Source: an uncultured Nitrospiraceae bacterium (GTDB taxonomy: Bacteria; Nitrospirota; Thermodesulfovibrionia; Thermodesulfovibrionales; Dissulfurispiraceae). From it: a stretch of 64,000 nucleotides of DNA. Numbering within the stretch: the stretch's first letter is position 1; each line of letters starts with the position of its first letter. The position numbers and the translations under genes are program-made. The notes beneath the pieces were generated by a model, which saw only the letters and a program-made list of their open reading frames with translations, had not been told where the DNA came from and did no database searches. The stretch lies in NCBI GenBank assembly GCA_963727805.1, contig CAVSHF010000005.1:416001-480000 (forward strand), read 5' to 3'. Positions 2,280 through 32,371 of this stretch are shown here, in pieces.

Positions 2280-2660
2280 CGGTCAGCGGATAATATTGCT
2301 TTTTTGCCTACAGACTTAGCTACCAGAAAATCTCGAGCACTCGGCGAAAAAAAACAGCCAGAAAGAATCGCCCACAGCATTCGTTACTTAGCGGGTGTGA
2401 GTGCCGCCCCCTGTACATTTCAAGTTGAAACCGCGATAGTTCAAGGCAAGTTGTCTAGTGTTGACTCCTGTGAGTAGGACTAAACCGCTGCGCGGTGGAT
2501 TCGATTAGCAAGGGCCTATCAGTAGTAGTACCATCTTTTTCGAATAGCCACTTTTGCCTGATCACATTTCTTTGTTGAACCATCGAAGTCTTTTTACAAT
2601 CTCTCTTTGCTGTGCTGCCGGCATGAGCTGGCAGAAAACAGTTTCAAAGGAGATTGTATT

Positions 2661-3506
2661 ATGAGCGCGTTGAAAGAACGGTTGCTGCAGGATCTTCAGT
2701 TGAAGGGCATTACGCTTGGTGTCCAAAGGAAATATCTCCGGGAAGTCGGTAACCTTGAGAATTATTTCGGCAAGTCTCCTGAAGAACTGAGTACAGAGGA
2801 AGTGAAGCAGTATCTGGTTCATCTTATGGAAGAAAGGGGTTTAACGAGGGGGACATACAGAACCTATGTGGCCGGGATCAAGTTCCTTTATAATACGACC
2901 CTGAATCGTGCGGATGTAGTCAATAATATTCAATATCCGAAAGCCCAGAAGAAGCTGCCTCTCGTTTTGGATTTGTCCGAAGTCCAGGCGATTTTCTCAG
3001 TCACTGAAAACATCAAGCACAAGGCGCTTCTGATGATCACCTATTCTGCCGGGTTGAGAATAAGTGAAGCTGCGCGACTGAAGGTGACAGATATCGACAG
3101 CAAGAGTATGCTGGTTTATGTCCGTCTTGGAAAAGGGGCAAAGGACCGTTACTCCATCTTATCGCAGACTGCCCTTGAGTGCTTAAGACAGTATTGGAGG
3201 GAATATCGCCCGGAGGAGTGGTTATTTGAAGGCGAGAAGGACAACACCCATATCACTATAAGCTCCATCTACCAGATATTCCAAAAATCCAAGAAACGCG
3301 CCGGCATCGCAAAGAATGCTTGCGTGCATACTCTGAGGCATAGTTTTGCGACACACCTTATCGAGGCGGGGACTAGTCTTCATCATGTCCAACTGCTTCT
3401 TGGGCACAGGTCACCGACGACCACGACCGTTTATCTTCATGTCAGCAAGATGAATCTGGCAAAAGTTGTCAGTCCGCTGGACATAGCAACTAAAAAATAT
3501 CTGTAG
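2661..3506 (+). CDS. Tyrosine recombinase/integrase
   Basis: GLRISE, HTLRHSFATHL, LLGH and TTTVY catalytic motifs; start placed at the ATG after AAGGAG. Confidence 0.92.
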   Translation: MSALKERLLQDLQLKGITLGVQRKYLREVGNLENYFGKSPEELSTEEVKQYLVHLMEERGLTRGTYRTYVAGIKFLYNTTLNRADVVNNIQYPKAQKKLPLVLDLSEVQAIFSVTENIKHKALLMITYSAGLRISEAARLKVTDIDSKSMLVYVRLGKGAKDRYSILSQTALECLRQYWREYRPEEWLFEGEKDNTHITISSIYQIFQKSKKRAGIAKNACVHTLRHSFATHLIEAGTSLHHVQLLLGHRSPTTTTVYLHVSKMNLAKVVSPLDIATKKYL

Positions 3507-3527
3507 CACTCTGAGCCGTAAATCCAG

Positions 3528-4724
3528 ATGCGCCAGTCTCGTGGTGTGGAGGTGGCGGATATCTTACGCCGCTACGGCTCCGATTATCGGCAGTCTCATT
3601 CCTTGCCTCTTCGTCATCTGCGGGCCATGCACGCCGTGGAGATATGCAGGACGGCAGCACTCGGAGGCCATAGGGACAAGTGCGAGGATTGCGGCCACGT
3701 CGAGATATCCTACAACTCCTGCCGGAACAGGCACTGTCCCAAATGCCAGACCCTGAAAAAAGAACAGTGGATTGAGGCCAGACAACAGGACCTTTTGCCC
3801 ATCCAGTACTTCCATGTAGTTTTCACTATCCCGTCGGAACTCAATCCGGTTGTCATAATGAATCAGAAGGTCATGTATGATCTGCTGTTCCGTTGTGTCT
3901 CCGAAACTCTCACCGAACTCTCAAATGACCAGAAGCATCTCGGTGCCCGCATCGGCTTCATCAGCATCCTTCATACCTGGGGGCAGAATCTGATGGACCA
4001 TCCCCATATCCACTGTGTCGTCACCGGAGGCGGCCTGTCTTGCGACGGAGACAGTTGGGTATCCTGCCGCAAAGGCTTCTTCATTCCGGTCAGGGTAATG
4101 TCGGCGTTGTTCCGGGGAAAGTTCCTCGATCATCTGAAAAGGATCTTTGAAGCGGGTGATCTTATCTTTCCCGGAGGAATAAGTCATCTCGGCGATTCCC
4201 ATACCTTCGAGATGCTCAGAAGAAAGCTTTATCACAAGAAGTGGGTTGTCTACTGCAAACCGCCCTTCGACGGAGTTGGCGGCGTCCTGCAATATCTCGG
4301 CCGATATACGCACAGGATCGCCATCAGCAACAATCGTATAATCGAGGCCGAAAACGGCAAGGTCTCGTTCAAATGGCGTGATTACGCAGATGACGATAAG
4401 CACAAGGTGATGACTCTGCAGGCCGATGAGTTCATCAGAAGATTCCTTCTGCATGTACTGCCGAATCGATACGTTCGGATAAGGCACTTCGGCCTGCTGG
4501 CAAACAGGAAACGTAGAGATAACATTGCTGCATGCCGCGAGCTTCTTGACAGTCACAACACCGTAATGAAAGAGCAGGACAAGCCTGAGACCTGGCAGGA
4601 ACAGCTGCTAAGGATCTGCGGCATTGACGTCACCACCTGCCCCGTTTGCAAAAAAGGCAAGATGCGCCGAATTGAGATTCTGCCTCCCCGCCGCTGCAAC
4701 GATCCTCCGGAGCAATGCCGATGA
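3528..4724 (+). CDS. IS91-family rolling-circle (Y2 HUH) transposase
   Basis: Zn-binding N-terminus (CEDC, SCRNRHCPKC), HPHIH HUH motif, YLGRY two-tyrosine motif. Confidence 0.93.
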   Translation: MRQSRGVEVADILRRYGSDYRQSHSLPLRHLRAMHAVEICRTAALGGHRDKCEDCGHVEISYNSCRNRHCPKCQTLKKEQWIEARQQDLLPIQYFHVVFTIPSELNPVVIMNQKVMYDLLFRCVSETLTELSNDQKHLGARIGFISILHTWGQNLMDHPHIHCVVTGGGLSCDGDSWVSCRKGFFIPVRVMSALFRGKFLDHLKRIFEAGDLIFPGGISHLGDSHTFEMLRRKLYHKKWVVYCKPPFDGVGGVLQYLGRYTHRIAISNNRIIEAENGKVSFKWRDYADDDKHKVMTLQADEFIRRFLLHVLPNRYVRIRHFGLLANRKRRDNIAACRELLDSHNTVMKEQDKPETWQEQLLRICGIDVTTCPVCKKGKMRRIEILPPRRCNDPPEQCR

Positions 4725-17731: not shown

Positions 17732-17836
17732 ATGACTTCGACATGTATCCGAGCTCGCCAATTTATTGACTATGGTGTCAGATTTTTTTGGAAATAAATG
17801 GTGGCTCTCGTAGCAGATGATGAAGGGTACGTGCAG
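17732..17836 (+). repeat. 105-bp direct repeat, copy 1
   Basis: Matches 21930-22034 with 2 mismatches seen. Confidence 0.9.
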
Positions 17837-18022
17837 TAGGACTAAACCGCTGCGCGGTGGATTCGATTAGCAAGGGCCTATCAGTAGTAGTACCATCTTT
17901 TTCGAATAGCCACTTTTGCCTGATCACATTTCTTTGTTGAACCATCGAAGTCTTTTTACAATCTCTCTTTGCTGTGCTGCCGGCATGAGCTGGCAGAAAA
18001 CAGTTTCAAAGGAGATTGTATT

Positions 18023-18868
18023 ATGAGCGCGTTGAAAGAACGGTTGCTGCAGGATCTTCAGTTGAAGGGCATTACGCTTGGTGTCCAAAGGAAATATCTC
18101 CGGGAAGTCGGTAACCTTGAGAATTATTTCGGCAAGTCTCCTGAAGAACTGAGTACAGAGGAAGTGAAGCAGTATCTGGTTCATCTTATGGAAGAAAGGG
18201 GTTTAACGAGGGGGACATACAGAACCTATGTGGCCGGGATCAAGTTCCTTTATAATACGACCCTGAATCGTGCGGATGTAGTCAATAATATTCAATATCC
18301 GAAAGCCCAGAAGAAGCTGCCTCTCGTTTTGGATTTGTCCGAAGTCCAGGCGATTTTCTCAGTCACTGAAAACATCAAGCACAAGGCGCTTCTGATGATC
18401 ACCTATTCTGCCGGGTTGAGAATAAGTGAAGCTGCGCGACTGAAGGTGACAGATATCGACAGCAAGAGTATGCTGGTTTATGTCCGTCTTGGAAAAGGGG
18501 CAAAGGACCGTTACTCCATCTTATCGCAGACTGCCCTTGAGTGCTTAAGACAGTATTGGAGGGAATATCGCCCGGAGGAGTGGTTATTTGAAGGCGAGAA
18601 GGACAACACCCATATCACTATAAGCTCCATCTACCAGATATTCCAAAAATCCAAGAAACGCGCCGGCATCGCAAAGAATGCTTGCGTGCATACTCTGAGG
18701 CATAGTTTTGCGACACACCTTATCGAGGCGGGGACTAGTCTTCATCATGTCCAACTGCTTCTTGGGCACAGGTCACCGACGACCACGACCGTTTATCTTC
18801 ATGTCAGCAAGATGAATCTGGCAAAAGTTGTCAGTCCGCTGGACATAGCAACTAAAAAATATCTGTAG
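18023..18868 (+). CDS. Tyrosine recombinase/integrase
   Basis: Same translation as 2661-3506. Confidence 0.92.
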   Translation: MSALKERLLQDLQLKGITLGVQRKYLREVGNLENYFGKSPEELSTEEVKQYLVHLMEERGLTRGTYRTYVAGIKFLYNTTLNRADVVNNIQYPKAQKKLPLVLDLSEVQAIFSVTENIKHKALLMITYSAGLRISEAARLKVTDIDSKSMLVYVRLGKGAKDRYSILSQTALECLRQYWREYRPEEWLFEGEKDNTHITISSIYQIFQKSKKRAGIAKNACVHTLRHSFATHLIEAGTSLHHVQLLLGHRSPTTTTVYLHVSKMNLAKVVSPLDIATKKYL

Positions 18869-18889
18869 CACTCTGAGCCGTAAATCCAG

Positions 18890-20086
18890 ATGCGCCAGTC
18901 TCGTGGTGTGGAGGTGGCGGATATCTTACGCCGCTACGGCTCCGATTATCGGCAGTCTCATTCCTTGCCTCTTCGTCATCTGCGGGCCATGCACGCCGTG
19001 GAGATATGCAGGACGGCAGCACTCGGAGGCCATAGGGACAAGTGCGAGGATTGCGGCCACGTCGAGATATCCTACAACTCCTGCCGGAACAGGCACTGTC
19101 CCAAATGCCAGACCCTGAAAAAAGAACAGTGGATTGAGGCCAGACAACAGGACCTTTTGCCCATCCAGTACTTCCATGTAGTTTTCACTATCCCGTCGGA
19201 ACTCAATCCGGTTGTCATAATGAATCAGAAGGTCATGTATGATCTGCTGTTCCGTTGTGTCTCCGAAACTCTCACCGAACTCTCAAATGACCAGAAGCAT
19301 CTCGGTGCCCGCATCGGCTTCATCAGCATCCTTCATACCTGGGGGCAGAATCTGATGGACCATCCCCATATCCACTGTGTCGTCACCGGAGGCGGCCTGT
19401 CTTGCGACGGAGACAGTTGGGTATCCTGCCGCAAAGGCTTCTTCATTCCGGTCAGGGTAATGTCGGCGTTGTTCCGGGGAAAGTTCCTCGATCATCTGAA
19501 AAGGATCTTTGAAGCGGGTGATCTTATCTTTCCCGGAGGAATAAGTCATCTCGGCGATTCCCATACCTTCGAGATGCTCAGAAGAAAGCTTTATCACAAG
19601 AAGTGGGTTGTCTACTGCAAACCGCCCTTCGACGGAGTTGGCGGCGTCCTGCAATATCTCGGCCGATATACGCACAGGATCGCCATCAGCAACAATCGTA
19701 TAATCGAGGCCGAAAACGGCAAGGTCTCGTTCAAATGGCGTGATTACGCAGATGACGATAAGCACAAGGTGATGACTCTGCAGGCCGATGAGTTCATCAG
19801 AAGATTCCTTCTGCATGTACTGCCGAATCGATACGTTCGGATAAGGCACTTCGGCCTGCTGGCAAACAGGAAACGTAGAGATAACATTGCTGCATGCCGC
19901 GAGCTTCTTGACAGTCACAACACCGTAATGAAAGAGCAGGACAAGCCTGAGACCTGGCAGGAACAGCTGCTAAGGATCTGCGGCATTGACGTCACCACCT
20001 GCCCCGTTTGCAAAAAAGGCAAGATGCGCCGAATTGAGATTCTGCCTCCCCGCCGCTGCAACGATCCTCCGGAGCAATGCCGATGA
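18890..20086 (+). CDS. IS91-family transposase
   Basis: Same translation as 3528-4724. Confidence 0.93.
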   Translation: MRQSRGVEVADILRRYGSDYRQSHSLPLRHLRAMHAVEICRTAALGGHRDKCEDCGHVEISYNSCRNRHCPKCQTLKKEQWIEARQQDLLPIQYFHVVFTIPSELNPVVIMNQKVMYDLLFRCVSETLTELSNDQKHLGARIGFISILHTWGQNLMDHPHIHCVVTGGGLSCDGDSWVSCRKGFFIPVRVMSALFRGKFLDHLKRIFEAGDLIFPGGISHLGDSHTFEMLRRKLYHKKWVVYCKPPFDGVGGVLQYLGRYTHRIAISNNRIIEAENGKVSFKWRDYADDDKHKVMTLQADEFIRRFLLHVLPNRYVRIRHFGLLANRKRRDNIAACRELLDSHNTVMKEQDKPETWQEQLLRICGIDVTTCPVCKKGKMRRIEILPPRRCNDPPEQCR

Positions 20087-20473
20087 AAACCGTGGTCGTT
20101 TCAAAAATCGCCTCAATATCGCCCCGCGAAAAAAACATCTCTTTTCGCAACACGGTCTTGTTGTCCGAAAACGCCACTTTCGGCCCTTGCACATCATCGC
20201 AAAGGTCAAACAGGGGCATTAAAGACGCTGCCTATCAGCCTTGTTCAGCAAGACTTGCTCCTATATATCCTAAAAGATGCCACTGCCGATAGTATAAGGA
20301 AGGATAATCTTCGATTGAATTGACATATCCGCACAGCGGCTTAGTCCTTCACACGTCAATCCGCAACTTCGCAGCGGATTGACGCTTATTCGTACCCAAG
20401 AATTTGATTTCAACAGTTATTTTCCGAAATCATCATTTTTGGTGAGATAGCCGTGGTGTTGACTTTCAGTCAA

Positions 20474-21670
20474 CTATACAGCAGCCACCTCCTTTTTAAA
20501 CGGGATTCTGTTTGTAAGCATAGAGAAGATAACCCTGATCAGCTTGTGAGTGGTGGCCATTAATGCCTTCATCTTAGGCAATCCTTCAGCGATTCGTCTA
20601 AGGTAATATTCTCTGAATATATTGTCAGATCTTATTGTACAGAGTGTAATAAGATGGCTGATGCGCCTCATATGACGATTCCCTCGTTTTGATATTTTAC
20701 TTGGCCCCACATGCTTCCCTGACTGATGAGTCGATGGATCGAGCCCCATGTAAGCTATCAAACTCTTATATGATTTGAAGTTGGACAGCTCTCCCATCTC
20801 AGCCAGAAAGCTGCTGCCAAGAATGTCTTTCACCCCATCGAGAGTCTTCATTATCTCAAGATCTTCGATCCGTGTTGCCTCACACGCATCCACCAATGCC
20901 TCGGTAATCTTCTCACACTTCTCCTGAAGATACAGGATCGTGGTTGCCTTCTCAGAGACAATGAGCTCCTTCGCTTTACCAGCTGAGCCCACCGAGCGCT
21001 TTGCAGCAGCAATAAGATCGTCGGCACTAATCTGGACCCTCTTGCGCTTCTCCCCAGGGCAGATGAGCGCTTTGTCGATATCTTTCCTCTTGGCCTCCCG
21101 AATTAATCTGGCTGAAGGATACTGCCTAATAAAGTTCAGCATCGTATCAGTGTAAATATTCTTGCGGAGTGTCTCAAACTCAGGGAAAGTGCTCTGCAGC
21201 AGCCGTTTGAGGTCATTCTTAAGTGTTGCGATCAGCCATGACTGAGACTCTCTTTCCCTGGCCAGATCCCTGAGATCCTGTGCATCCTGGGACTCGGTCA
21301 CGGAGTAAAGCTTCTTTTCATTGTTCAGAAGAAACTGCGCTATGGTCATCGCATCCTTCTTATCTGTCTTGGTCTTTCTCAATGACCCCTGAACAAACTT
21401 GGATATTAGAAGCGGATTGACTACCGCACAACGAAGTCCCTCCGCACATAGGAAGGAAAAGAGGTTGATATGATAACAGCCGGTGGACTCCATCGTAACA
21501 GCAATATCATCCAGGTTCACAGCGCATCTTTTAATCGCAGTCCGAAGCTCTGCGAACCCCGCTGAGTCCATTGAGAACCTTAAATAAAAAAGCTTCTTTT
21601 CGTCACTGTCGATGCTTTGGGCAGTCGAGTGCTCTTTTGACACATCGATGCCAATGAATGCTTTGCTCAT
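20474..21670 (-). CDS. IS110-family DEDD recombinase A
   Basis: IGIDVSK, MESTG, KTDKKDA, HQSGK, ISKRGN; start moved to MSKAF. Confidence 0.93.
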   Translation of the reverse strand: MSKAFIGIDVSKEHSTAQSIDSDEKKLFYLRFSMDSAGFAELRTAIKRCAVNLDDIAVTMESTGCYHINLFSFLCAEGLRCAVVNPLLISKFVQGSLRKTKTDKKDAMTIAQFLLNNEKKLYSVTESQDAQDLRDLARERESQSWLIATLKNDLKRLLQSTFPEFETLRKNIYTDTMLNFIRQYPSARLIREAKRKDIDKALICPGEKRKRVQISADDLIAAAKRSVGSAGKAKELIVSEKATTILYLQEKCEKITEALVDACEATRIEDLEIMKTLDGVKDILGSSFLAEMGELSNFKSYKSLIAYMGLDPSTHQSGKHVGPSKISKRGNRHMRRISHLITLCTIRSDNIFREYYLRRIAEGLPKMKALMATTHKLIRVIFSMLTNRIPFKKEVAAV

Positions 21671-21689
21671 TTCCAAGCGCCTCCCACAT

Positions 21690-21860
21690 AGGATCTTAGG
21701 CAGGATGCCTCCCAACCATATCTCCATGTTTACAAGAGCTCTTAGCCCGATCAACTTATCATGGTTTTTGGGAGGCAGGGAACTGACTGAAAAAAGGATT
21801 CAATGACCCTGTAGCAAACCACGTTCTCCTGCCTCTTTATGAACGGTTAACAACCGTCCA
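21690..21860 (-). ncRNA. Candidate bridge RNA of IS110 element A
   Basis: 5' hairpin GGACGGTT..AACCGTTC, stem GAGGCAGG..CCTGCCTC, short matches to the flank and the circle junction. Confidence 0.55.
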
Positions 21861-21929
21861 TATTATCGTTATACCATATTTGATGTGTAGGAGTAGCACC
21901 AATTCAGCGGCCTCGATATTGCTGCCGCG

Positions 21930-22034
21930 ATGACTTCGACATGTATCCGAGCTCGCCAATTTATTGGCTATGGTGTCAGATTTTTTTGGAAATAAATGGT
22001 GGCTCTCGTAGCAGATGATGAAGAGTACGTGCAG
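21930..22034 (+). repeat. 105-bp direct repeat, copy 2
   Basis: Matches 17732-17836. Confidence 0.9.
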
Positions 22035-22179
22035 AAAGCAATAGTTTGCTTGATCTATTTTTCTGTCTGTCCGGAGAGCATATTCTCACAGACCCTGGTT
22101 TATTATTGTCAAGTACTTTCCCTTCCCCTTCTATGGGAACTCATTGGATATCGCATTATATGTTCCTTATGCTTAATTG

Positions 22180-22345
22180 GTGTAGCACCTTGCCCAACAC
22201 TGGTGATTTGAGGGTCTCTACAGAGCCCTAACCTTGCTTCATTGAGACTAAGATGCAAGCGGGGAGTTATGCATGCTACGAATGAGGGTCGGCTCAGCCG
22301 CCTTTGGGTCTGTGATGATAATCTCCCCGCCCTATGCGCCCAAAG
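22180..22345 (-). ncRNA. Bridge/seek RNA of IS110 element B
   Basis: Two stem-loops carrying TCACAGACCC and TTCGTAG (target) and AGCAAG and ACCAG (donor); RNA ends approximate. Confidence 0.75.
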
Positions 22346-22351
22346 TATGAC

Positions 22352-23608
22352 TTATGCAGCCTCCTGTAACAATGTTATTGAGAAGTCTTTTCTGTACACG
22401 CTTTGATCACGCACGATGGCGAATATGATACCAAGAAGTTTCCTTGCAACGGCGATCAAAGCTTTGATCTTGGGCATTCCACGCTGGAGGTACTGTTGAT
22501 ATGGATGATGCATTATTCCTCCTCGGCGCACTGCATTGAGTGCGGCAAAGAACAAGAGTTTACGCAGAAGTGGCCGGCCTCGCTTGGATATGTGCCGTTT
22601 CCCCTGATGTTTACCCGAACTGATCTCATACAGGTCCAGGCCAGCGAGCTTCAGAATCTCTGAGAGGGTTCCAAACTTACGAAAATCACCAACCTCACCA
22701 ATAAGACCGGCAGCTGTGACCTCCTTGATACCCTTGATCGACAGGATCGAATCACTGTATGGGATCTGTTTCAGGTAATAGGCCATCTCTTTTTCCAGAC
22801 TCTCGGTAAAGGACTCAGCTGCATCCATGATAACAAGAAGCTCTCGCATCTCACGGATAATGCTTGCCATGCCTTCGGTCACGCCGACAGATGTTTGAGC
22901 GGCCTCAAAGAGGGCCTTGGCACGGTCTTCCTTAAGTTTTCCACGGCTTATCTTTCTGAGTGTTTTAGTCAAATTATCAAGACCATACTCGACAATATCC
23001 TTTGGTGCCGGACACAGCCTAAGTAGATATCGGGAGCTTAAGATTTTCATATCCTTCATGACATGCAAGAATTCCGGGAATACGATCGCAATCAGACTCT
23101 GGAGTTGATTCACTGAAGCTACAAAACGCTCATTGCTCCTTTCCCTGGCCTGCGTGAGCCTCCGAAGCTCTGCAGCCGGACCTTCCGGTATCACAACTGT
23201 CAGAGCGTGGCCAAGAGCCATGATATCGGCAATGACCTTTGGATCTTTTTGATCGGTCTTGTGAGGCGAATTGCCCTGCAAATCCTTCCCCCTCTTGGTG
23301 TGCATAGGGTTAACCTGTACCATATGCACTCCTCTTGCGCGCATGAAATGCACCAAAGGCTCTGCGAACGAACCAGTAGATTCGTATCCAAACACAATGT
23401 TATCAAGATTATAGAGATTCTTGGCATGCAACACTTGGTTCCAGAACTCTTGAAAACCACCGCCGTTGTTCCAGAAAGCAAAAGGCTTCACATCGGTTCC
23501 GTCCGGACAGCGCCAGTACCCAAAATGTTTGTCTTTGCTCATATCAACACTCACGATCAGGGTTTGTCCGTTGACTACTTTAATCTTTTTTGTTTTAATC
23601 TTATTCAT
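22352..23608 (-). CDS. IS110-family DEDD recombinase B
   Basis: VSVDMSK, YESTG, KTDQKDP, ISSGK, ISKRGR. Confidence 0.93.
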   Translation of the reverse strand: MNKIKTKKIKVVNGQTLIVSVDMSKDKHFGYWRCPDGTDVKPFAFWNNGGGFQEFWNQVLHAKNLYNLDNIVFGYESTGSFAEPLVHFMRARGVHMVQVNPMHTKRGKDLQGNSPHKTDQKDPKVIADIMALGHALTVVIPEGPAAELRRLTQARERSNERFVASVNQLQSLIAIVFPEFLHVMKDMKILSSRYLLRLCPAPKDIVEYGLDNLTKTLRKISRGKLKEDRAKALFEAAQTSVGVTEGMASIIREMRELLVIMDAAESFTESLEKEMAYYLKQIPYSDSILSIKGIKEVTAAGLIGEVGDFRKFGTLSEILKLAGLDLYEISSGKHQGKRHISKRGRPLLRKLLFFAALNAVRRGGIMHHPYQQYLQRGMPKIKALIAVARKLLGIIFAIVRDQSVYRKDFSITLLQEAA

Positions 23609-23868
23609 GGCTATACTCCTTTCTTTGGTTCGGATTTAACCAACTCGCCAATTGGCTCCAAATCAAGAAAGAGTATAGCCTTTTTAAATGGCCATCACTA
23701 CCCTTCTTAAATATAGCAAGCTACGAACCCACGTCTTCAAATACATGACCAAGGTAATGCAGCGTCTTCATTAATGAAGGCTGTCTGCTCATAGCGCCCA
23801 CAACCCGGCGTATCCGGGACTGCGGTTTAAAGAAACATGCAGCTAGCTGCGATTTTGTGGCAATCTAC

Positions 23869-25419
23869 AGTACTGCGCCGGCAAAGACCGATAGCTTCAA
23901 TGGTGCGGATCTGCCCGTCTCATAGCGTGGTCCTGGGTCACGTCTGCGACATTGGTGAGTCCGGCTATGCCAGACATCCCGTTTGAGAGATTGATCAGAG
24001 TGACGTACCCGTACCGGCGTAGCATTCTGGTGAGATAACGGAGGGAACTGTGGGAAGAAGACATCGTGCTTTGACATTGAAGCATCCAAATGCTGCTGGT
24101 ATCGATGTAGGTGCAGAAAGCCATTTTGTGGCAGTACCGCCAGATCGGGACGATGAACCGGTACGGGAGTTCAGGAGTTTTACTGAAGATTTACACCGCA
24201 TAGCGCAGTGGTTGTCTAACTGTGGAGTGGACATAGTGGCGATGGAGTCCACGGGGGTCTACTGGATATCGTTGTATGAGTTCTTAGAGTCAAAAGGATT
24301 CACGGTATATCTGGTGAATGCGCGACATGTCAAAAATGTTTCTGGTCGCAAATCGGATGTATTGGATTGTCAATGGATACAGCAGTTGATGAGTTATGGG
24401 CTTTTGTCGGGTGCCTTTAGGCCTGCAGATGAGATATGCGCATTGAGAGCAGTGTCACGGCAAAGGGAGATGCTTCTTAAGTATCAATCTCAGCATGTAC
24501 AGCACATGCAGAAGGCTCTTGCGCAGATGAATATTCAGATAGTCAATGTTATTGCAGATATCGTAGGGGAGACTGGACAAAAGATAGTGAGAGCAATAAT
24601 CGCTGGAGAGCGTGACCCCTATAAGCTTGCAAGCCTGAGGAACTACCGAGTAAAAGCGAGCGAGGAAGAGATAGCAAAATCATTGCAAGGCAACTGGCGT
24701 CAAGAGCATTTGTTTGCACTTAAACAGGCCGTTGCATTATTTGATGCATACTCGGAGCAGCTTCGTCAGTGTGATTGCCAGCTCCAGAAGATGCTTCAGG
24801 AACTGAAGCGGTATGATGGAGAGCCTACATCTATATATAGTAAAGCGAGATCTCGCAAAAAGAACGAGCCTCAGTTTGATTTGAGGTCATATCTGGTAGG
24901 GATGTGCGGAGTGGATTTGACCCGCATTGATGGAATAGAGGTAACGACTGCGTTGAAAATAATGTCGGAGGTGGGTCCGGATCTGTCGCGGTTTCCATCC
25001 GTAAAGCACTTCACTTCATGGCTGGGTATATGTCCTGGCACTAAGATATCTGGTGGAAAGAAATTATCCGGGAAATCCAGAGCTGGCGCTAACCGTGCAG
25101 CTCAGGCGTTAAGATTAGCCGCTCATGCATTACGTGCGAGCAAGTCGGCATTGGGAGCCTACTATCGTCGTCTATGCTCCAGATTAGACAAAGCCAAAGC
25201 AATTACAGCTGCTGCACATAAATTGGCCCGACTAGTTTATACAATGCTTACAAGGGGAACAGAATATGTGGACAAGGGGCAGGAATACTACGAAGAACGT
25301 TATCGACAGCGTGTTGTCCATAACTTGAACAAAAAGGCTGCGGCTATGGGTTTCGTTCTTATGCCGGCTCCGGAGAAGGCCTGTGGAATGCCATGAGATT
25401 TAAAGCTGTTTCTTGAGAG
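23869..25419 (+). mobile_element. IS110-family element C (non-coding region upstream of the gene)
   Basis: About 180-nt structured leader; right end GTTTCTTGAGAG; candidate AG core. Confidence 0.65.
24050..25396 (+). CDS. IS110-family DEDD recombinase C
   Basis: AGIDVG, MESTGVYW, RKSDVLDC, KISGGK. Confidence 0.93.
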   Translation: MGRRHRALTLKHPNAAGIDVGAESHFVAVPPDRDDEPVREFRSFTEDLHRIAQWLSNCGVDIVAMESTGVYWISLYEFLESKGFTVYLVNARHVKNVSGRKSDVLDCQWIQQLMSYGLLSGAFRPADEICALRAVSRQREMLLKYQSQHVQHMQKALAQMNIQIVNVIADIVGETGQKIVRAIIAGERDPYKLASLRNYRVKASEEEIAKSLQGNWRQEHLFALKQAVALFDAYSEQLRQCDCQLQKMLQELKRYDGEPTSIYSKARSRKKNEPQFDLRSYLVGMCGVDLTRIDGIEVTTALKIMSEVGPDLSRFPSVKHFTSWLGICPGTKISGGKKLSGKSRAGANRAAQALRLAAHALRASKSALGAYYRRLCSRLDKAKAITAAAHKLARLVYTMLTRGTEYVDKGQEYYEERYRQRVVHNLNKKAAAMGFVLMPAPEKACGMP

Positions 25420-25754
25420 AGAAGATCGGGTTTGAGGATGGCACCTGTTATAGATACATTGCAGCATACTACGCGGGGGTAGACACGGGATTAGAAAAGT
25501 CTTGCTTTTTTAACATAGAAGTAATTGAGATTAGACACTACACGGCAATTACGCTTCATTATAAACAGCAATCATCAGGGGCGTATCAAGACTGCACGGA
25601 CTACTGCCCACCATTACTGCCCACCATATGGTTCTTGGCGGTCGCAAGATTTCCGATGCAAACGTGCGTGCCCCCCGCCTAAGCTCGCTTGTGAGGTTCC
25701 TCCAGAACCTTATCATATCAGAACAAAATTTTCTGACTGATCATCAAAAATGGG

Positions 25755-25784
25755 TTGACAAAAAAAGAAAATGGGCAGTAGTAT
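25755..25784 (+). promoter_or_regulatory. Putative sigma70 promoter of the tetR-RND operon
   Basis: TTGACA-18 nt-TAGTAT. Confidence 0.55.
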
Positions 25785-25825
25785 AAACTCTGTTATGTTA
25801 ACATATCATCGTTAAGGAAGCTTTA

Positions 25826-26437
25826 ATGGGAATCCAACAAAAAAGGTCCAAGTACAGGGAGGAGTTTCGCAGAGAGATTCTGGCTGAAGCCCGTAAACTT
25901 TTTATAACTGAGGGCTACGAAAAGTTCACTATGCGTAAGCTCGCCGGGAAAATAGACTATTCTCCGCCCACCATTTATCTTTATTTCAAAAACAAGGATG
26001 ATTTACTATTAGCTATATGTGAAGAAGTTGCGGAACAATATTTTGCAAACCTTAAACTTATAAGGGCGCGTTACACCGATCCTCTCCAGACCCTTCGTCA
26101 AGCTTTACTGTACTTTATAGAGTTCGGATTCAGTAACCCTCAACAATATAAAGTATTTTTCTCCATGAACCCGGATCTTTATGGCAAGAAAGAGGAGTTT
26201 ATGGAAAAGGAGTCCATGGCGAAAAATTCTTATCTTATATTCAGGGAAATTGTGCAGGATTGCATTGATGCAGGCAGGCTTCAGGCGATGGATACAGATG
26301 TGATGACGCAGTCTTTTGCTGTAGCGGTTCAGGGTCTTGTCCTGATGACAATCTACAGAAAAAGTTTTCCATGGGCGGACCGGAATTTGTTAGCTTCTGC
26401 CTTGGTAGATTGTTTGCTTAGAGGGTACCTAAAGTAA
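25826..26437 (+). CDS. TetR/AcrR-family regulator
   Basis: N-terminal HTH TMRKLAGKIDYSPPTIYLYFKNK. Confidence 0.93.
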   Translation: MGIQQKRSKYREEFRREILAEARKLFITEGYEKFTMRKLAGKIDYSPPTIYLYFKNKDDLLLAICEEVAEQYFANLKLIRARYTDPLQTLRQALLYFIEFGFSNPQQYKVFFSMNPDLYGKKEEFMEKESMAKNSYLIFREIVQDCIDAGRLQAMDTDVMTQSFAVAVQGLVLMTIYRKSFPWADRNLLASALVDCLLRGYLK

Positions 26438-26481
26438 CTTATAACGTTGTTATGTATTTTTCACTCATGGAGGAAGTTGAC

Positions 26482-27705
26482 ATGACGCTTTTGGAGATGC
26501 TCATACTGAACAAGAAGAAATCCAGCATAATTGCTGTCACTGGAATACTTGCCGCATCTCTTTTTATTGCAGGATGCAAAGACCGGAGTGCTGCAGTCGG
26601 CAATGCGCAAAGCGCACCGCCCGAGGTAAACGTTGTCGCTGTGAAGCCTCATCGCGTGGCGCTTTCAACAGAGCTTCCGGGCCGAACGTCCGCATATTTT
26701 ATTGCTGAGGTGAGACCGCAGGTGAGCGGCATCGTTAAGCAGCGGTTGTTTATCGAAGGTGCTGATGTGAAGGCAGGCGAGGTGCTCTATCAGATAGATC
26801 CTGCCACCTATCAGGCGTCTTTCAACAGTGCAAAGGCCGCACTTGATAAATCCGAAGCCAATCTTGTACCTGCCCGGCTTAAGGCTGAGCGGTACAAAGA
26901 TCTTGTCAAGATCAACGCGGTCAGTCAGCAGGACTACGACGATGCAAGTTCAGCGCTCAAGCAGGCTGAGGCCGATGTAGAGGCAAGTAAGGCAGCGGTC
27001 GAATCTGCGCGCATAAATTTGGCCTATACGAAGGTAACTGCACCCATCTCCGGACGGATCGGCCGGTCATCGGTAACCAGTGGCGCCCTTGTGACGGCCA
27101 ATCAGCCTGCCGCGCTGGCCACCGTACAGCAGCTCAGTCCCATTTATGTTGATGTCACCCAGTCCAGCGCAGACATGCTCCGCCTAAAACGGGATATAGC
27201 CAGCGGCCGTATGAAAAGCAGTGGCGTAGCGCAGACCCCGGTGAAGCTCCTGCTGGAGGACGGCAGTAGCTATCCGTTGGACGGAACCCTCAAGTTTTCT
27301 GAGGTCACAGTCGACCAGACAACAGGCTCCATCACCATACGAGCGGTATTCCCCAACCCAAAGAAGACCCTGCTCCCGGGGATGTTCGTCCGTGCGGTCC
27401 TGGAGGAGGGAGTCGATGAAAGCGCGATTCTTGTACCTCAAATAGGGGTCAGCCGGAACCCGGCAGGAGAAGCAACTGTCATGGTGGTGGGGAACGAAGA
27501 AAAGGCCGAGGCGCGCGTGATAAAAGTAGTCCGTACAGTCGGAGACTCCTGGCTGGTCAGCGACGGGCTCAAGACAGGCGACCGTGTCATCCTTGAAGGG
27601 ATTCAGAAAGTGCGACCCGGAATGCCCGTCAAAGCGGTCGCATCGGCGGACAGGGCAGACAACGCTCCAGCAGGTTCAGCGAATACTGCGGCAGCAAAGA
27701 AGTAG
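26482..27705 (+). CDS. acrA: RND efflux periplasmic adaptor (AcrA/MexA family)
   Basis: Lipobox [28 protein letters not shown]; start after GGAGG. Confidence 0.92.
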
Positions 27706-27719
27706 GGCGGAGCGAATTC

Positions 27720-30700
27720 ATGGCAAAATTCTTTATAAATCGTCCTATTTTTGCATGGGTAATCGCAATCATGGTCATGCTGGCCGGCCTCCTTGCGATC
27801 CAGAAACTTCCGATTTCGCAGTACCCGCCTATCGCGCCGCCCCAAATTGCCATCAACGCGGTCTATCCCGGCGCCTCGGCGCAGACGGCGCAGGATACGG
27901 TCACACAAGTAATCGAACAGAAGCTCAATGGCATTGACAACCTGATATACATGGCTTCCACCAGCGACTCGGCTGGGGCTGTCAGCATTACCTTGACATT
28001 CAAGGCGGGGACCGACCCCAATATCGCCCAGGTGCAGGTTCAAAACAAGCTGCAGCTGGCCATGCCGCTGCTCCCCCAGATCGTGCAGCAGCAGGGGATT
28101 CAGGTGGTCAAGTCAGGCCGGAACTACCTGCTGGTTGTGGGACTGGTTTCAGAAGACGGCTCCATGGACCGCAATTCCCTGACCGACTACATGGTTTCCA
28201 ATATCCAGGATACCGTAAGCCGACTGAACGGAGTGGGTGAATTGATGGTGTTCGGGACCCAAAACGCCATGAGGATATGGCTTAACCCGGCGAAGCTGGA
28301 CAATTACCACCTGACAACCAATGACGTTATGAGCGCTCTGCAGACACAGAACGTCCAGGTATCGGCTGGCCAGTTTGGGGGGACTCCTGCTGTCAAAGGG
28401 CAGCAGCTTAATGCCACTATTATGGCTCGCACACTGCTGCAGACGCCGGACCAGTTTGGCAACGTCATCCTCCGGACCAACACTGACGGCTCGACAGTAA
28501 AACTCAGGGATGTAGCCGATTGTAAGATAGGCACCGAGAACTACGACATCCAGTCGTTCTACAATGGCAAGCCGTTAGGCGGAATGGCCATACGGATGGA
28601 CCCTGCGGCTAACGCACTGGAGACTGCAACCCGAGTCAAGGCAAAGATGGCGGAGCTCTCACAATACTTTCCACGGGGAATGAAGGTGGTCTATCCCTAC
28701 GATTCCACCCCCTTTGTGAAGATTTCGATCGAAGAGGTGGTACATACCCTTGTTATAGCTGTTTGCCTCGTTTTTATCATTATGTTCCTATTTCTTCAGA
28801 ATATTCGGGCGACTCTCATCCCCACCATAGCCGTGCCGGTAGTTCTCCTTGGGACCATGGGAGTGCTTGCTGCCAGCGGATTTTCAATCAACACCCTTAC
28901 CATGTTTGCACTGGTCATAGTCATCGGCCTTCTGGTGGATGACGCCATAGTGGTTGTGGAAAACGTAGAGAGAATCATGACCGAAGAGGGCCTCTCCCCC
29001 CATGACGCCACCATCAAGTCCATGGGACAGATAACCAGCGCCCTGTGGGGGATTGCCACCGTCCTGACTGCGGTCTTCCTCCCAATGGCTTTTTTCGGCG
29101 GTTCTACGGGCGTCATTTATCGCCAGTTTTCCATAACAATAATATCGGCCATGATCCTGTCAGTGCTGGTGGCCCAAATCCTGACCCCTGCCCTCTGCGC
29201 CACCATCCTGAAGCCTATTGCAAAGGGGCATCATGCCGGCGAGACCGGGTGGTTTGCCTGGTTTTTCCGCTATTTCAATCGGGTATTCGATTTCTGTCGG
29301 GGCAAATATGAAGGGATTGTAGGCCGTTCTTTCAAGAAGATTGTACGCTACCTGATCATTTACGGCGCTATAGTGGCAGCCATGGTCTACTTCGCCCTCC
29401 GTCTCCCGACTTCATTTCTGCCGGATGAGGACCAGGGATTCCTGCTCTGCCAGCTCCAGCTGCCTGCCGGCGCCACCATGGAACGGACCCTGCAGTCCTT
29501 AAAACTCATTGAGCGGCACTTCCTGGAGGATGAGAAGAAAACAGTTGAGGGGATCATAACCGTGGCCGGCTTCAGTTTTGCCGGGCGCGGGCAAAACATG
29601 GCGCTCGCATGGGTGAAGCTCAAAGACTGGAATGTGCGAAAAACCTCGGACCTGAAGGCCCCAGCCATTGCGGCGCGAGCGATGAAGGCTTTTTCGCAGA
29701 TTCGGGACGGTCTCGCATTTGCCTTCGCGCCGCCGGCGGTACTGGAGCTGGGGGTGGCCAACGGCTTTGATCTGCAGCTGCAGGACCGCGGAGGTGCAGG
29801 TCATGAGAAACTGATGGAGGCGCGCAACCAACTGCTTGGCATGGCGATGAAGGACCCGAAACTGACTGCGTTGCGGCCCAATGGCCAGGACGATTCTCCC
29901 CAGTTCAAACTCGATATTGATGACGTCAGGGCCGGGTCGCTTGGGATTCCACTGACCAATATCAACGATGTCCTTTCCACGGCATGGGGAAGCACATACG
30001 TCAACAACTTCATCCAGAACGGCCGGGTAAAGAAGGTTTATCTCCAATCGGATCCGCGATATAGAATGCTGCCAGAGGACTTCAACAGCTGGTATGTCAG
30101 CAACAAGGATGGCCAGATGGTGCCATTTTCGGCCTTTTCCAGTGCTCACTGGCAATACGGCTCGCCGCGACTCGAGCGGTACAACGGCCTCGCATCAGTA
30201 GAAATTCTGGGGCAGGCGATCCCAGGCGTGAGCACCGGCGAGGCAATGGCAGAGATGGAAAAGATGGCGGCCCAACTCCCGCCAGGGATAGGCTACGAGT
30301 GGACGGGACTATCGTATGAGGAAAGGAATGCAGGGGCACAGGCGCCGGCACTTTATGCAATCTCACTTCTGGTAGTCTTTCTCGCAGTAGCTGCATTGTA
30401 TGAAAGCTGGACGATCCCATTTGTCAATCTGCTGATGCTGCCGCTTGGCCTGGTCGGCGCTGTCACAATGGTTACGCTCCGCGGCCTGCCCAATGACGTT
30501 TATCTGCAGATCGGCCTTCTCACGACAGTCGGGCTTTCGACCAAAAATGCCATCCTGATCATCCAGTTCATCAAGGAACAGATGCGGCAGGGGCACGAAG
30601 TTACGGAGGCGACGCTGAACGCTGTAAAAATCAGGCTCCGGCCGGTTATTATGACATCCCTTGCCTTCTTTTTCGGCACACTGCCTCTTGCGCTTACCAA

Positions 30701-30884
30701 GGGGGCTGGCGCCGGGGCTCAAAATGCAATAGGCACCGCTGTGACAGGCGGATTGCTCTCTGCCACCTTCATCGACTTGGTCTTCATTCCATTTTTCTTC
30801 GTGCTGGTATCGCGCTTGTTTAGCCGTAAAATAAATAAAGCACACGCATCGACACCAGCTGCCGACAGTGCCGTGGAGGATTGA
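27720..30884 (+). CDS. acrB: RND efflux transporter (AcrB/MexB family)
   Basis: [42 protein letters not shown]; 1054 aa. Confidence 0.96.
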
Positions 30885-32371
30885 TTGATATGAAAGGACC
30901 TGCCATCTCAAATAAGATTCCAAACAAACAAGCCGGCGGGCATGGACTGCCGGAAGGCTTTGGATTTCTCACTGTAACTATTTGCCTTGTTTTGTTCGCT
31001 CTGTCAGGCTGCACCATGATTCCCCAATATGCACGACCGGGGACTCCCGTGCCAGCTGACTGGCCGAGCGGCCCTGCTTATATGCAAGACAAAGACCTGC
31101 CAACCGGCACATCTGCTGCCGGCATTAAATGGCAGGAGTTTTTTGTCGGGGGTCAGCTTCAGAAACTGATAGCACTTGCACTGGACAACAACCGGGACCT
31201 GCGGGTAGCAGCACTCAATATAGAAAAATCCCAGGCGCTTTATCAAATCCAGCGCGCCGATCTCTTCCCTACGGTGACAGCGGATGGCAGTGGACTTATC
31301 CAGCGAATACCTGCCAGCCTCTCTACAACAGGCCAGGCTGAAACATCCCATCAGTACAGTGTTGGTCTCGGATTTGCCGCCTACGAGATAGATCTATTTG
31401 GCAGGGTGCGAAGCCTTAAAGAGGAGGCTCTGGAGCAGTTCTTCGCTACCGCAGAGGCGCGCCGCAGTGCACAGATCAGCCTTGTGGCTCAGGTGGCAAG
31501 CGCCTATCTGACCCTTGCTGCCGATGAGGAGCATCTGAAAATAGCCCAACAGACCTTCGAAAGCCAACAGGCATCGTACAACCTCATCAAGAGCCGCTTC
31601 AAGGCTGGCGCTTCGTCAGAGCTGGACCTGCGCCAGGCAGAGACGAGTGTTGATTCGGCAAGGGTGGACATTGCCGCCTTCACAAGCCAGGTAGCCCAGG
31701 ACGAAAATGCGCTGGCCTTAGTGATAGGGTCGCCGGTCCCGCCTGATCTTTTGCCGTCAAAGCTTGATGCGGATACTGCGCTTAAAGATCTCAGCCCGGG
31801 CCTGCCCTCAGAGGTGCTGCAGCGCCGTCCCGATATAATGCAGGCTGAACATATTCTCAAGGCCGCCAACGCCGACATCGGTGCGGCGCGTGCGGCGTTC
31901 TTTCCGCGCATAACTCTCACAAGCAGCATTGGCCTCTCAAGCGCTGATTTGAGCGGACTCTTCAAGGGAGGATCCGGGGTATGGAGCTTTGCGCCGCAGA
32001 TCACTTTGCCAATCTTCGATGCTGGACGTAACCGGGCCAATCTGGAAGTGTCAAAAGTCGACCGCGAAATATTCATTGCCCAGTATGAAAAGTCGATCCA
32101 GAGCGCCTTCAGGGAGGTGTCTGACGCCCTTGCCCAACATGGCACACTTGGATCCCAGCTGGATGCACAGCAAGCTCTAACTGATGCCACTGACGCAGCA
32201 TACCGCTTGTCGCAGGCGCGCTACAGCAAGGGTATATCGAGCTATCTTGATGTCCTTGTTTCCCAGCGCTCCCTTTACATCGCGCAGCAAGGACTGATTA
32301 CCGTGCGTCTATCCCGTCTCACCAATCAGGTGACGCTCTATAAAGTGCTTGGCGGAGGGGCGGGCGAGTGA
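30881..32371 (+). CDS. Outer-membrane efflux lipoprotein (OprM/NodT family)
   Basis: LSGC lipobox, [19 protein letters not shown]. Confidence 0.93.

Follow-up and report, generated by a model that had tools for sequence, protein, structure and literature searches.

Among the closest described systems, the IS110-family element IS621 is reported to pair a DEDD and serine recombinase with a two-loop RNA carrying four guides, and to combine a 2-nt core with a promoter logic at the junction of its ends (PMC11208160; PDB 8wt6). The IS1111 seekRNA elements ISEc11, ISKpn4, ISPst6 and ISPa11 are described with sub-terminal repeats of 11-13 bp, and the same report notes a minority of 3'-NCR elements without such repeats, as well as ISEc21, which targets IS3-family transposase genes (PMC11187229). 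Here we describe ISa, an IS110-family element in the window, by which we mean the whole stretch of 64,000 nt that was analyzed (uncultured Nitrospiraceae bacterium, contig CAVSHF010000005.1 of assembly GCA_963727805.1). The assembly (3.9 Mb) is called G000 below, and C3, C4 and C5 are contigs of it. ISa shares the IS621 traits listed above, from the recombinase and the four guides to the core and the promoter logic; it differs from IS621 in that sequence similarity is weak (E 1.3e-5), the core is AG, the RNA follows the gene, the right guide precedes the left one and one guide can read its flanks in registers shifted by 0-2 nt.

With respect to classification, ISa falls within IS110 in the broad sense, with a 2-nt AG core at both junctions, a single AG in the uninterrupted site, and an NCR whose target and donor loops hold guides matching the flanks and the ends. 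Its layout is not that of the narrow, IS621-like IS110 group, as the RNA lies downstream and the guide order is reversed. The long NCR downstream of the gene and the right-before-left guides are IS1111 traits, but sub-terminal inverted repeats of 11-13 bp are absent (the best end score is reached by 85% of 2000 shuffles), and ISa is therefore not a canonical IS1111 element. Of the label IS110/IS1111 in the original prediction, which had been made from the letters of the window, the IS110 family and the IS1111-type guide order hold, while membership in IS1111 is not supported, the sub-terminal repeat being absent.

Table 1. Coordinates of ISa, of the ISd remains around it and of ISb, numbered from the first letter of the window.
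Feature	Position	Strand	Remarks
ISa, IS110-family element	22095..23722	-	1628 bp including both AG cores
ISa cores, read as CT	22095-22096; 23721-23722	+	
ISa DEDD recombinase ORF	22352..23608	-	418 aa, intact; ribosome-binding site at 23616-23622
-35 box TTGACA, half of predicted circle-junction promoter	22107..22112	-	near ISa right end
-10 box TATATT with TG-n	23710..23715	-	near ISa left end
Predicted target-binding stem-loop, ISa bridge RNA	22257..22331	-	alignment fold, 19 relatives
ISa right target guide	22306..22315	-	TCACAGACCC
ISa left target guide plus core	22276..22282	-	TTCGTAG
Predicted donor-binding stem-loop, ISa bridge RNA	22185..22256	-	alignment fold
ISa right donor guide	22233..22238	-	AGCAAG
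ISa left donor guide	22200..22204	-	ACCAG
ISd left junction	22085..22094	+	target half CTCACA, core GA, left-end bases CC; by comparison with intact ISd
ISd NCR 3' part	23723..23794	+	target-loop stem (3' arm) and donor loop (5' part); source of ISa's left target
ISd NCR remainder and right end	25420..25525	+	core GA at 25518-25519; right target half AGTAAT at 25520-25525
ISb, third IS110, in ISd's left donor guide	23793..25419	+	ORF 24050-25396, 448 aa
ISb candidate guides	23861-23866; 23919-23925; 23983-23989	+	CAATCT; CTCATAG; TTGAGAG

The recombinase of ISa passed the NCBIfam model NF033542 (192 bits, cut-off 140) and matched both IS110 Pfams (the RuvC-like DEDD domain and Transposase_20 with the catalytic serine), and D22, E76, D119, D122, S330 and S331 are invariant in an alignment of 48 homologues, which bears out the intact recombinase of the original prediction. 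All the motifs and both junctions that it had named were also found at their minus-strand places. The recombinase family comprises at least 3828 database proteins (E ≤ 1e-30); its closest members in named genomes come from Nitrospirota and one Proteobacteria bin (50-70% identical), the best plasmid matches are IS110 proteins at 32-35%, mostly from Firmicutes, and no relatives were found in the viral contigs searched. The ends of the family are strongly conserved, with CTTGCT following the core in 91/91 parsed left ends and ACCAG in 79/80 right ends. Joining the ISa ends reproduces the promoter that had been proposed, TTGACA-17 nt-TATATT with an extended TG (TG-n) ahead of the -10 box, and the 17-nt spacing is kept in 72 of the 75 family loci parsed. 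A circle junction was not seen among the 7 joints listed from four of 22 read runs, searched as contigs; the RNA run, likewise available as contigs, has essentially zero cover over ISa and is uninformative on expression, and an Rfam scan of 21500-26000 gave no match. We regard it as nearly certain that ISa is a real element, predicted to be probably active, whose mechanism is known in outline and which by its sequence appears to work like IS621 and ISEc11.

The guide motifs of ISa are unlikely to have arisen by chance, as all four never came together when the NCR's first 200 nt were shuffled 20,000 times; taken separately, the target motifs occurred in 0.9% (left, 7 nt) and 0.3% (right, 8 nt) of shuffles and the two donor motifs in 6% and 22%. 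A fold of the single sequence is no better than shuffles (z −0.77), and the alignment fold of 19 relatives (L007 left out) resolves into two stem-loops, both having an apical hairpin and an internal loop, with compensatory changes in 17 of the 40 pairs. For covariation we used 99 family loci, three of them G000's own copies and 93 with a parsable target loop, and removed duplicates and loci lacking a flank before counting. Left target guides match their flanks at 3.88 of 5 positions versus 1.73 when shuffled (51 distinct pairs, 31 guides; maximum 2.41 in 10,000 shuffles), and right target guides at 5.96 of 7 versus 3.60 (68 pairs, 41 guides; maximum 4.15 in 5,000 shuffles, with the best of three registers taken in both data and null). 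These values, from relatives that are non-independent samples, do not change when one pair per guide is kept. The donor side is almost invariant across the family, with one natural co-change, at L016, where guide and end both read ACAAG. Since the target guides covary with the flanks and the two-loop fold contains compensatory pairs, the bridge-RNA or seekRNA logic proposed for ISa stands; covariation in relatives shows loop 1 as the predicted reader of the target and loop 2 as that of the element ends.

The long target guide of the original prediction did not survive this comparison. The longest unbroken right pairing has its mode at 8 nt (24/68 pairs), made up of 7 nt and the core G, and in 32 of 35 unshifted pairs the guide has a C at position 8, where it pairs with that G; a pairing of 10 nt occurs in one of the 68 guide/flank pairs, the window-type junction, and at the internal ISd site described below the length is again 8 nt. 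In ISa these positions are TCACAGA (22309-22315) and C (22308), and the extra CC of the guide extends the pairing to 10 nt only at the left junction of ISd. We considered the long guide as an adaptation and rejected it: the same CC is common to the close relatives L020, L021 and L023, which have other targets, and so need not be an adaptation. Four guides of the family, including that of ISa, read flanks in two registers.

ISd is a second IS110, with a 356-aa transposase, and its intact form is found at G000:C4:1625-2895 and C5:1-1441. It has sub-terminal repeats (its end-to-end score is reached by 0% of 2000 shuffles); its core is GA and its target reads CTCACA-GA-AGTAAT. At C3:879457 there is an unoccupied ISd-like site bearing a single mismatch. 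Its guides match its own flanks at 5.3 of 7 positions versus 3.8 shuffled (21 pairs) and at 6.5 of 8 versus 4.3 (17 pairs), neither score being reached in 10,000 shuffles (29 loci). As judged from these matches, ISd is itself a bridge-RNA element with guides that track its flanks. We also observe a GC-rich segment of about 60 nt after the bridge RNA both in ISa relatives (L001, L008, L004, L027 and L085) and in ISd relatives (L103, L106, L107, L110 and L114), possibly a small insert common to the two families. A separate ISd remnant, G000:C3:1005123-1005228, starts exactly at the CT of ISa's site, with unrelated DNA before it.

G000 contains three copies of ISa (window, C3 and C4), and all three adjoin ISd sequence. 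In the C4 copy the right flank is a different one, TCTGTGAG, running into ISd; the copy starts at the contig end, which leaves its left flank unseen. Contig C5 starts with an ISd identical to that of C4 over 1271 nt and devoid of ISa, and in it we find the uninterrupted site TTCGT-AG-TCTGTGA at C5:1263-1276, with one AG at C5:1270; the ISd segment at 23723-23794 of the window is identical over 74 nt to G000:C5:1270-1343. The site lies 108 nt past the ISd stop codon, which rules out an interruption of the ISd coding sequence, and directly after the ISd left target guide (CTCACAGA-CT-ACGAA). In reverse complement it consists of that guide, two further bases and the beginning of the 3' arm of the target-loop stem. 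With its right guide ISa copies the variable guide of ISd, and with its left guide it reads the stem arm that comes next; the register usual in the family, 7 nt followed by a C opposite the core G, fits here. As the site spans both guide and stem arm, an insertion there would split the target loop of ISd. The 14-nt site, TTCGTAGTCTGTGA, occurs exactly once in the 3.9 Mb of G000. The starts of C4 (1-2895) and C5 (1-1441) resemble two alleles, one filled and one empty, of a single ISd locus; their missing flanks are on no other contig end of G000, the break is likely one between mixed alleles, and the sequenced population may therefore be mixed for ISa.

These data change the target that the original prediction had read off the window. 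The empty site deduced from the two flanks, TTCGTAGGGTCTGTGA, was absent from G000 in an exact search, whereas the uninterrupted TTCGT-AG-TCTGTGA is present, and the two flanks stem from sites 1.26 kb apart in ISd, making the target as first given probably a chimera; the nesting of ISa in the guide RNA of another IS110 had been overlooked. We are highly confident that the true target lies in ISd's target loop. Further support comes from a metagenome locus, L025, in which a 77% relative of ISa occupies the same spot of an 82% relative of ISd, and in which host and parasite guides both read ACATAGA, the same two of seven bases having changed in each. L025 is the one case of an ISa-family element inside an ISd among 96 non-self loci, and none of the 29 ISd loci besides C4 and L025 holds an ISa; with so few nestings, the co-change rests on two guide pairs. 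Many other ISa-family loci lie in GC-rich repeats, and in genome G403 an ISa left end is joined to an ISd stem arm, but to the 5' arm, in the other orientation and broken. Taken together, we consider it probable that ISa sits at one exact dinucleotide in the predicted bridge-RNA gene of ISd, likely through bridge-RNA-guided recombination.

In the window and on C3, the right end of ISa abuts the left junction of ISd (CTCACA-GA-CC-CT), and 1.26 kb of ISd between the CT of this junction and the internal CT is gone; in the window, it is the transposase (about 1.26 kb) that is missing past 22085-22094. The crossover in both composites is exactly the 2-nt CT, the core of ISa; it lies two bases off ISd's GA core and the 9-nt direct repeat, at neither of them. 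Because the ISd guide copies the ISd landing site, the left junction of ISd, ATCAT-AG-GGTCTGTGAG, would be a second, near-cognate ISa site, with 3/5 left matches plus one possible wobble and a 10-nt right match. Deletion of the ISd transposase between the two ISa cores accounts for that 10-nt guide match. The composites of the window and C3 differ in 34 codons of ISa and in 5/98 nt of the ISd end; the ISa copies of C3 and C4 are identical and the ISd end of C3 equals that of C5, with the window differing in both. Such different ISa and ISd variants suggest that the deletion probably happened more than once. Searches for these junction patterns gave 1/67 other genomes of the family, the ISa-free shortened ISd being found in G404 only, and 0/64 genomes of a second family, in which ISd relatives abound. 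In G404 the same shortened ISd occurs without ISa, and the crossover can be placed anywhere within a 3-nt CTA overlap. We think it likely that the transposase was lost in an ISa-dependent deletion, by some route; direct junction transfer, two insertions followed by RecA, or a site-to-site deletion before insertion may each fit the sequence. For other IS110s, LD-RT junction transfer to a new right target (10.1101/2025.10.25.684509) and half-match recombination (10.64898/2026.08.31.748434) have been reported.

Of the other readings of the locus, one keeps the hybrid target and has ISa prefer TTCGT-AG-GGTCTGTGA with a right guide of 9-10 nt, insert into an already shortened "mini-ISd" and leave the C4 copy off-register. 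The flanks required are those of two of the three genome copies, all 10 nt pair without a mismatch, G404 has an ISa-free mini-ISd whose joined junction reads GACC-CT-ACGAA, and longer right guides are on record (PMC11208160). Yet the exact site is absent from G000, a 10-nt pairing is unique among the 68 pairs, and the guide of L025 has AT at the positions in question and fits the internal site only. The mini-ISd junction itself lies at the core of ISa, and its origin still needs ISa; moreover, under the hybrid target too, the left half is ISd's bridge-RNA stem. We find this reading distinctly unlikely. A double insertion of ISa, at both ISd sites in direct orientation, with host homologous recombination then removing the transposase, would produce the same junctions; the differences between the ISa copies of the window and C3 cluster at 22877-23327, as after recombination, and an ISd left-end remnant at G000:C5:277244-277516 reads GACC-CT-GGGTTATT, like the right end of ISa, and is a possible footprint of an insertion at the junction site. 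No double-insertion intermediate is present in the assembly, and the ISa-free mini-ISd of G404 would remain unexplained by this route alone, which we hold to be unlikely.

The composite might also have formed once, from shortened ISd, ISa and ISb, and then moved non-autonomously through an ISd recombinase acting in trans. Over 3442 nt the window and C3 are 98.7% identical, with ISd-type target halves at the edges, unrelated DNA beyond and an identical ISb at both loci, and modular circles are reported for ISPpu9 (PMC12288879). Against a single event, the ISa and ISd parts of the C3 composite match the full-length C4/C5 form exactly but differ from those of the window, and the composite lacks ISd's left sub-terminal repeat; it seems to us very unlikely. 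That the nesting is a by-product of an IS hotspot, with no targeting of ISd, could be argued from a region packed with IS110 and IS91-type elements and from the many ISa relatives, indeed most, that lie in other repeats, but it is hardly credible given that the 14-nt site occurs exactly once in 3.9 Mb, that all three ISa copies abut ISd, and that the same nesting, with guides changed in step, recurs in a relative as distant as L025.

A third IS110, ISb, interrupts ISd at CTCAT-AG-AAGATT, and its 5' NCR contains CTCATAG and CAATCT; in its relative L153, the same guide slot matches the element's own flank over 8 nt. These candidate guides are suggestive only of ISb being guided to the donor guide of ISd. 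ISb is identical in the window and C3, and an ISb-free joint (23792-25420) is present in read run X1. Although the NCR of ISb (23795-24049) precedes its gene, the right candidate guide comes before the left, an order reported for downstream (IS1111-type) RNAs. At the right junction of ISb the window has an extra AG (25420-25421) that the C3 copy lacks. One left flank at L153 or L158, ISb relatives on G283:C134, ends in GTTAG, which we take to resemble an integron attC end; the next ISb relative of this pair lies at an ISb-type right end, with a guide slot that matches that end. As to the read runs, in X1, possibly the source sample, the flanks of C3 and C5 occur as loose ends, X2 and X3 contain ISa variants on contigs ending at 22095, and a contig of X3 crosses the left junction of ISa by 27 nt (bar 31 nt).

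The surrounding DNA is rich in further mobile elements. Positions 17835-20395 hold an element with a tyrosine recombinase and an IS91-type transposase (ORFs 17969-18868 and 18890-20086), of which the genome has 7 further near-identical copies, with one more in the window (ORFs 2607-4724). A fourth IS110 (20421-21896, 426 aa) has 7 other copies at 88-94%, including one beside the C3 composite and one beside the empty ISd-like site at C3:879457. Both this fourth IS110 and the IS91-type element lie between the two copies of a 105-nt direct repeat (98%; 17732-17836 and 21930-22034). Immediately beyond the IS cluster, translations of 25826-32371 indicate a TetR-like regulator and RND-type efflux genes.

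The course of events that we propose would begin with ISa as observed, an intact DEDD recombinase with conserved ends and a two-loop NCR after the gene. By analogy with its family, ISa would form a circular intermediate whose junction creates a sigma70 promoter; its target loop would then read the guide of ISd at TTCGT-AG-TCTGTGA, and recombination at the two AG cores would have removed the ISd transposase and left the hybrid junction of the window. An element that lies in ISd's predicted guide-RNA gene, carries a predicted guide spelling that spot and has likely deleted the transposase looks like a parasite, one programmable element living on another. A joint reading goes further and sees a guide-versus-guide arms race, in which ISa tracks the reprogrammed variable guide of ISd and excises its transposase and ISb targets the donor guide; we put this forward tentatively, at somewhat less than an even chance. 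If true, IS110s would disarm each other via RNA guides. ISa and ISd offer a natural example, open to testing, in which one programmable recombinase is directed at the programming device of another, with a two-base co-change in a relative. The locus also indicates that flanks may be recombination hybrids, in which case a target read off two junctions can mislead. The ISa family, whose donor ends are invariant, whose natural target guides number more than 30 and whose right guide reads flanks shifted by 0-2 nt, is a ready set for studies of bridge-editor specificity and off-target deletion.

With respect to known reactions, the junction-to-new-target reaction of CazIS110-1 (direct transfer; 10.1101/2025.10.25.684509) and the partial-match reaction of IS621 (half-match recombination; 10.64898/2026.08.31.748434) could each give an adjacent deletion of the kind seen here; both were described in reporter systems, and the portions of these reports available to us do not describe the deletion of a host IS110 transposase. 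The comparison also covered 10.64898/2026.08.14.744561 and PMC13626964. In the literature covered, main texts with few subscription papers among them, we found no description of an IS110 aimed at the bridge RNA of another, and such an RNA gene as the target also separates ISa from IS621. IS4321 and IS5075 reportedly occur in the inverted repeats of Tn21. Like these two elements and ISEc21, ISa appears to be programmed to insert where another mobile element is conserved; unlike them, it has a host that is itself predicted to be a bridge-RNA element, half of its target is the host's variable guide, so that the parasite's guide must track the host's, and this one guide fits the host's insertion junction as well.
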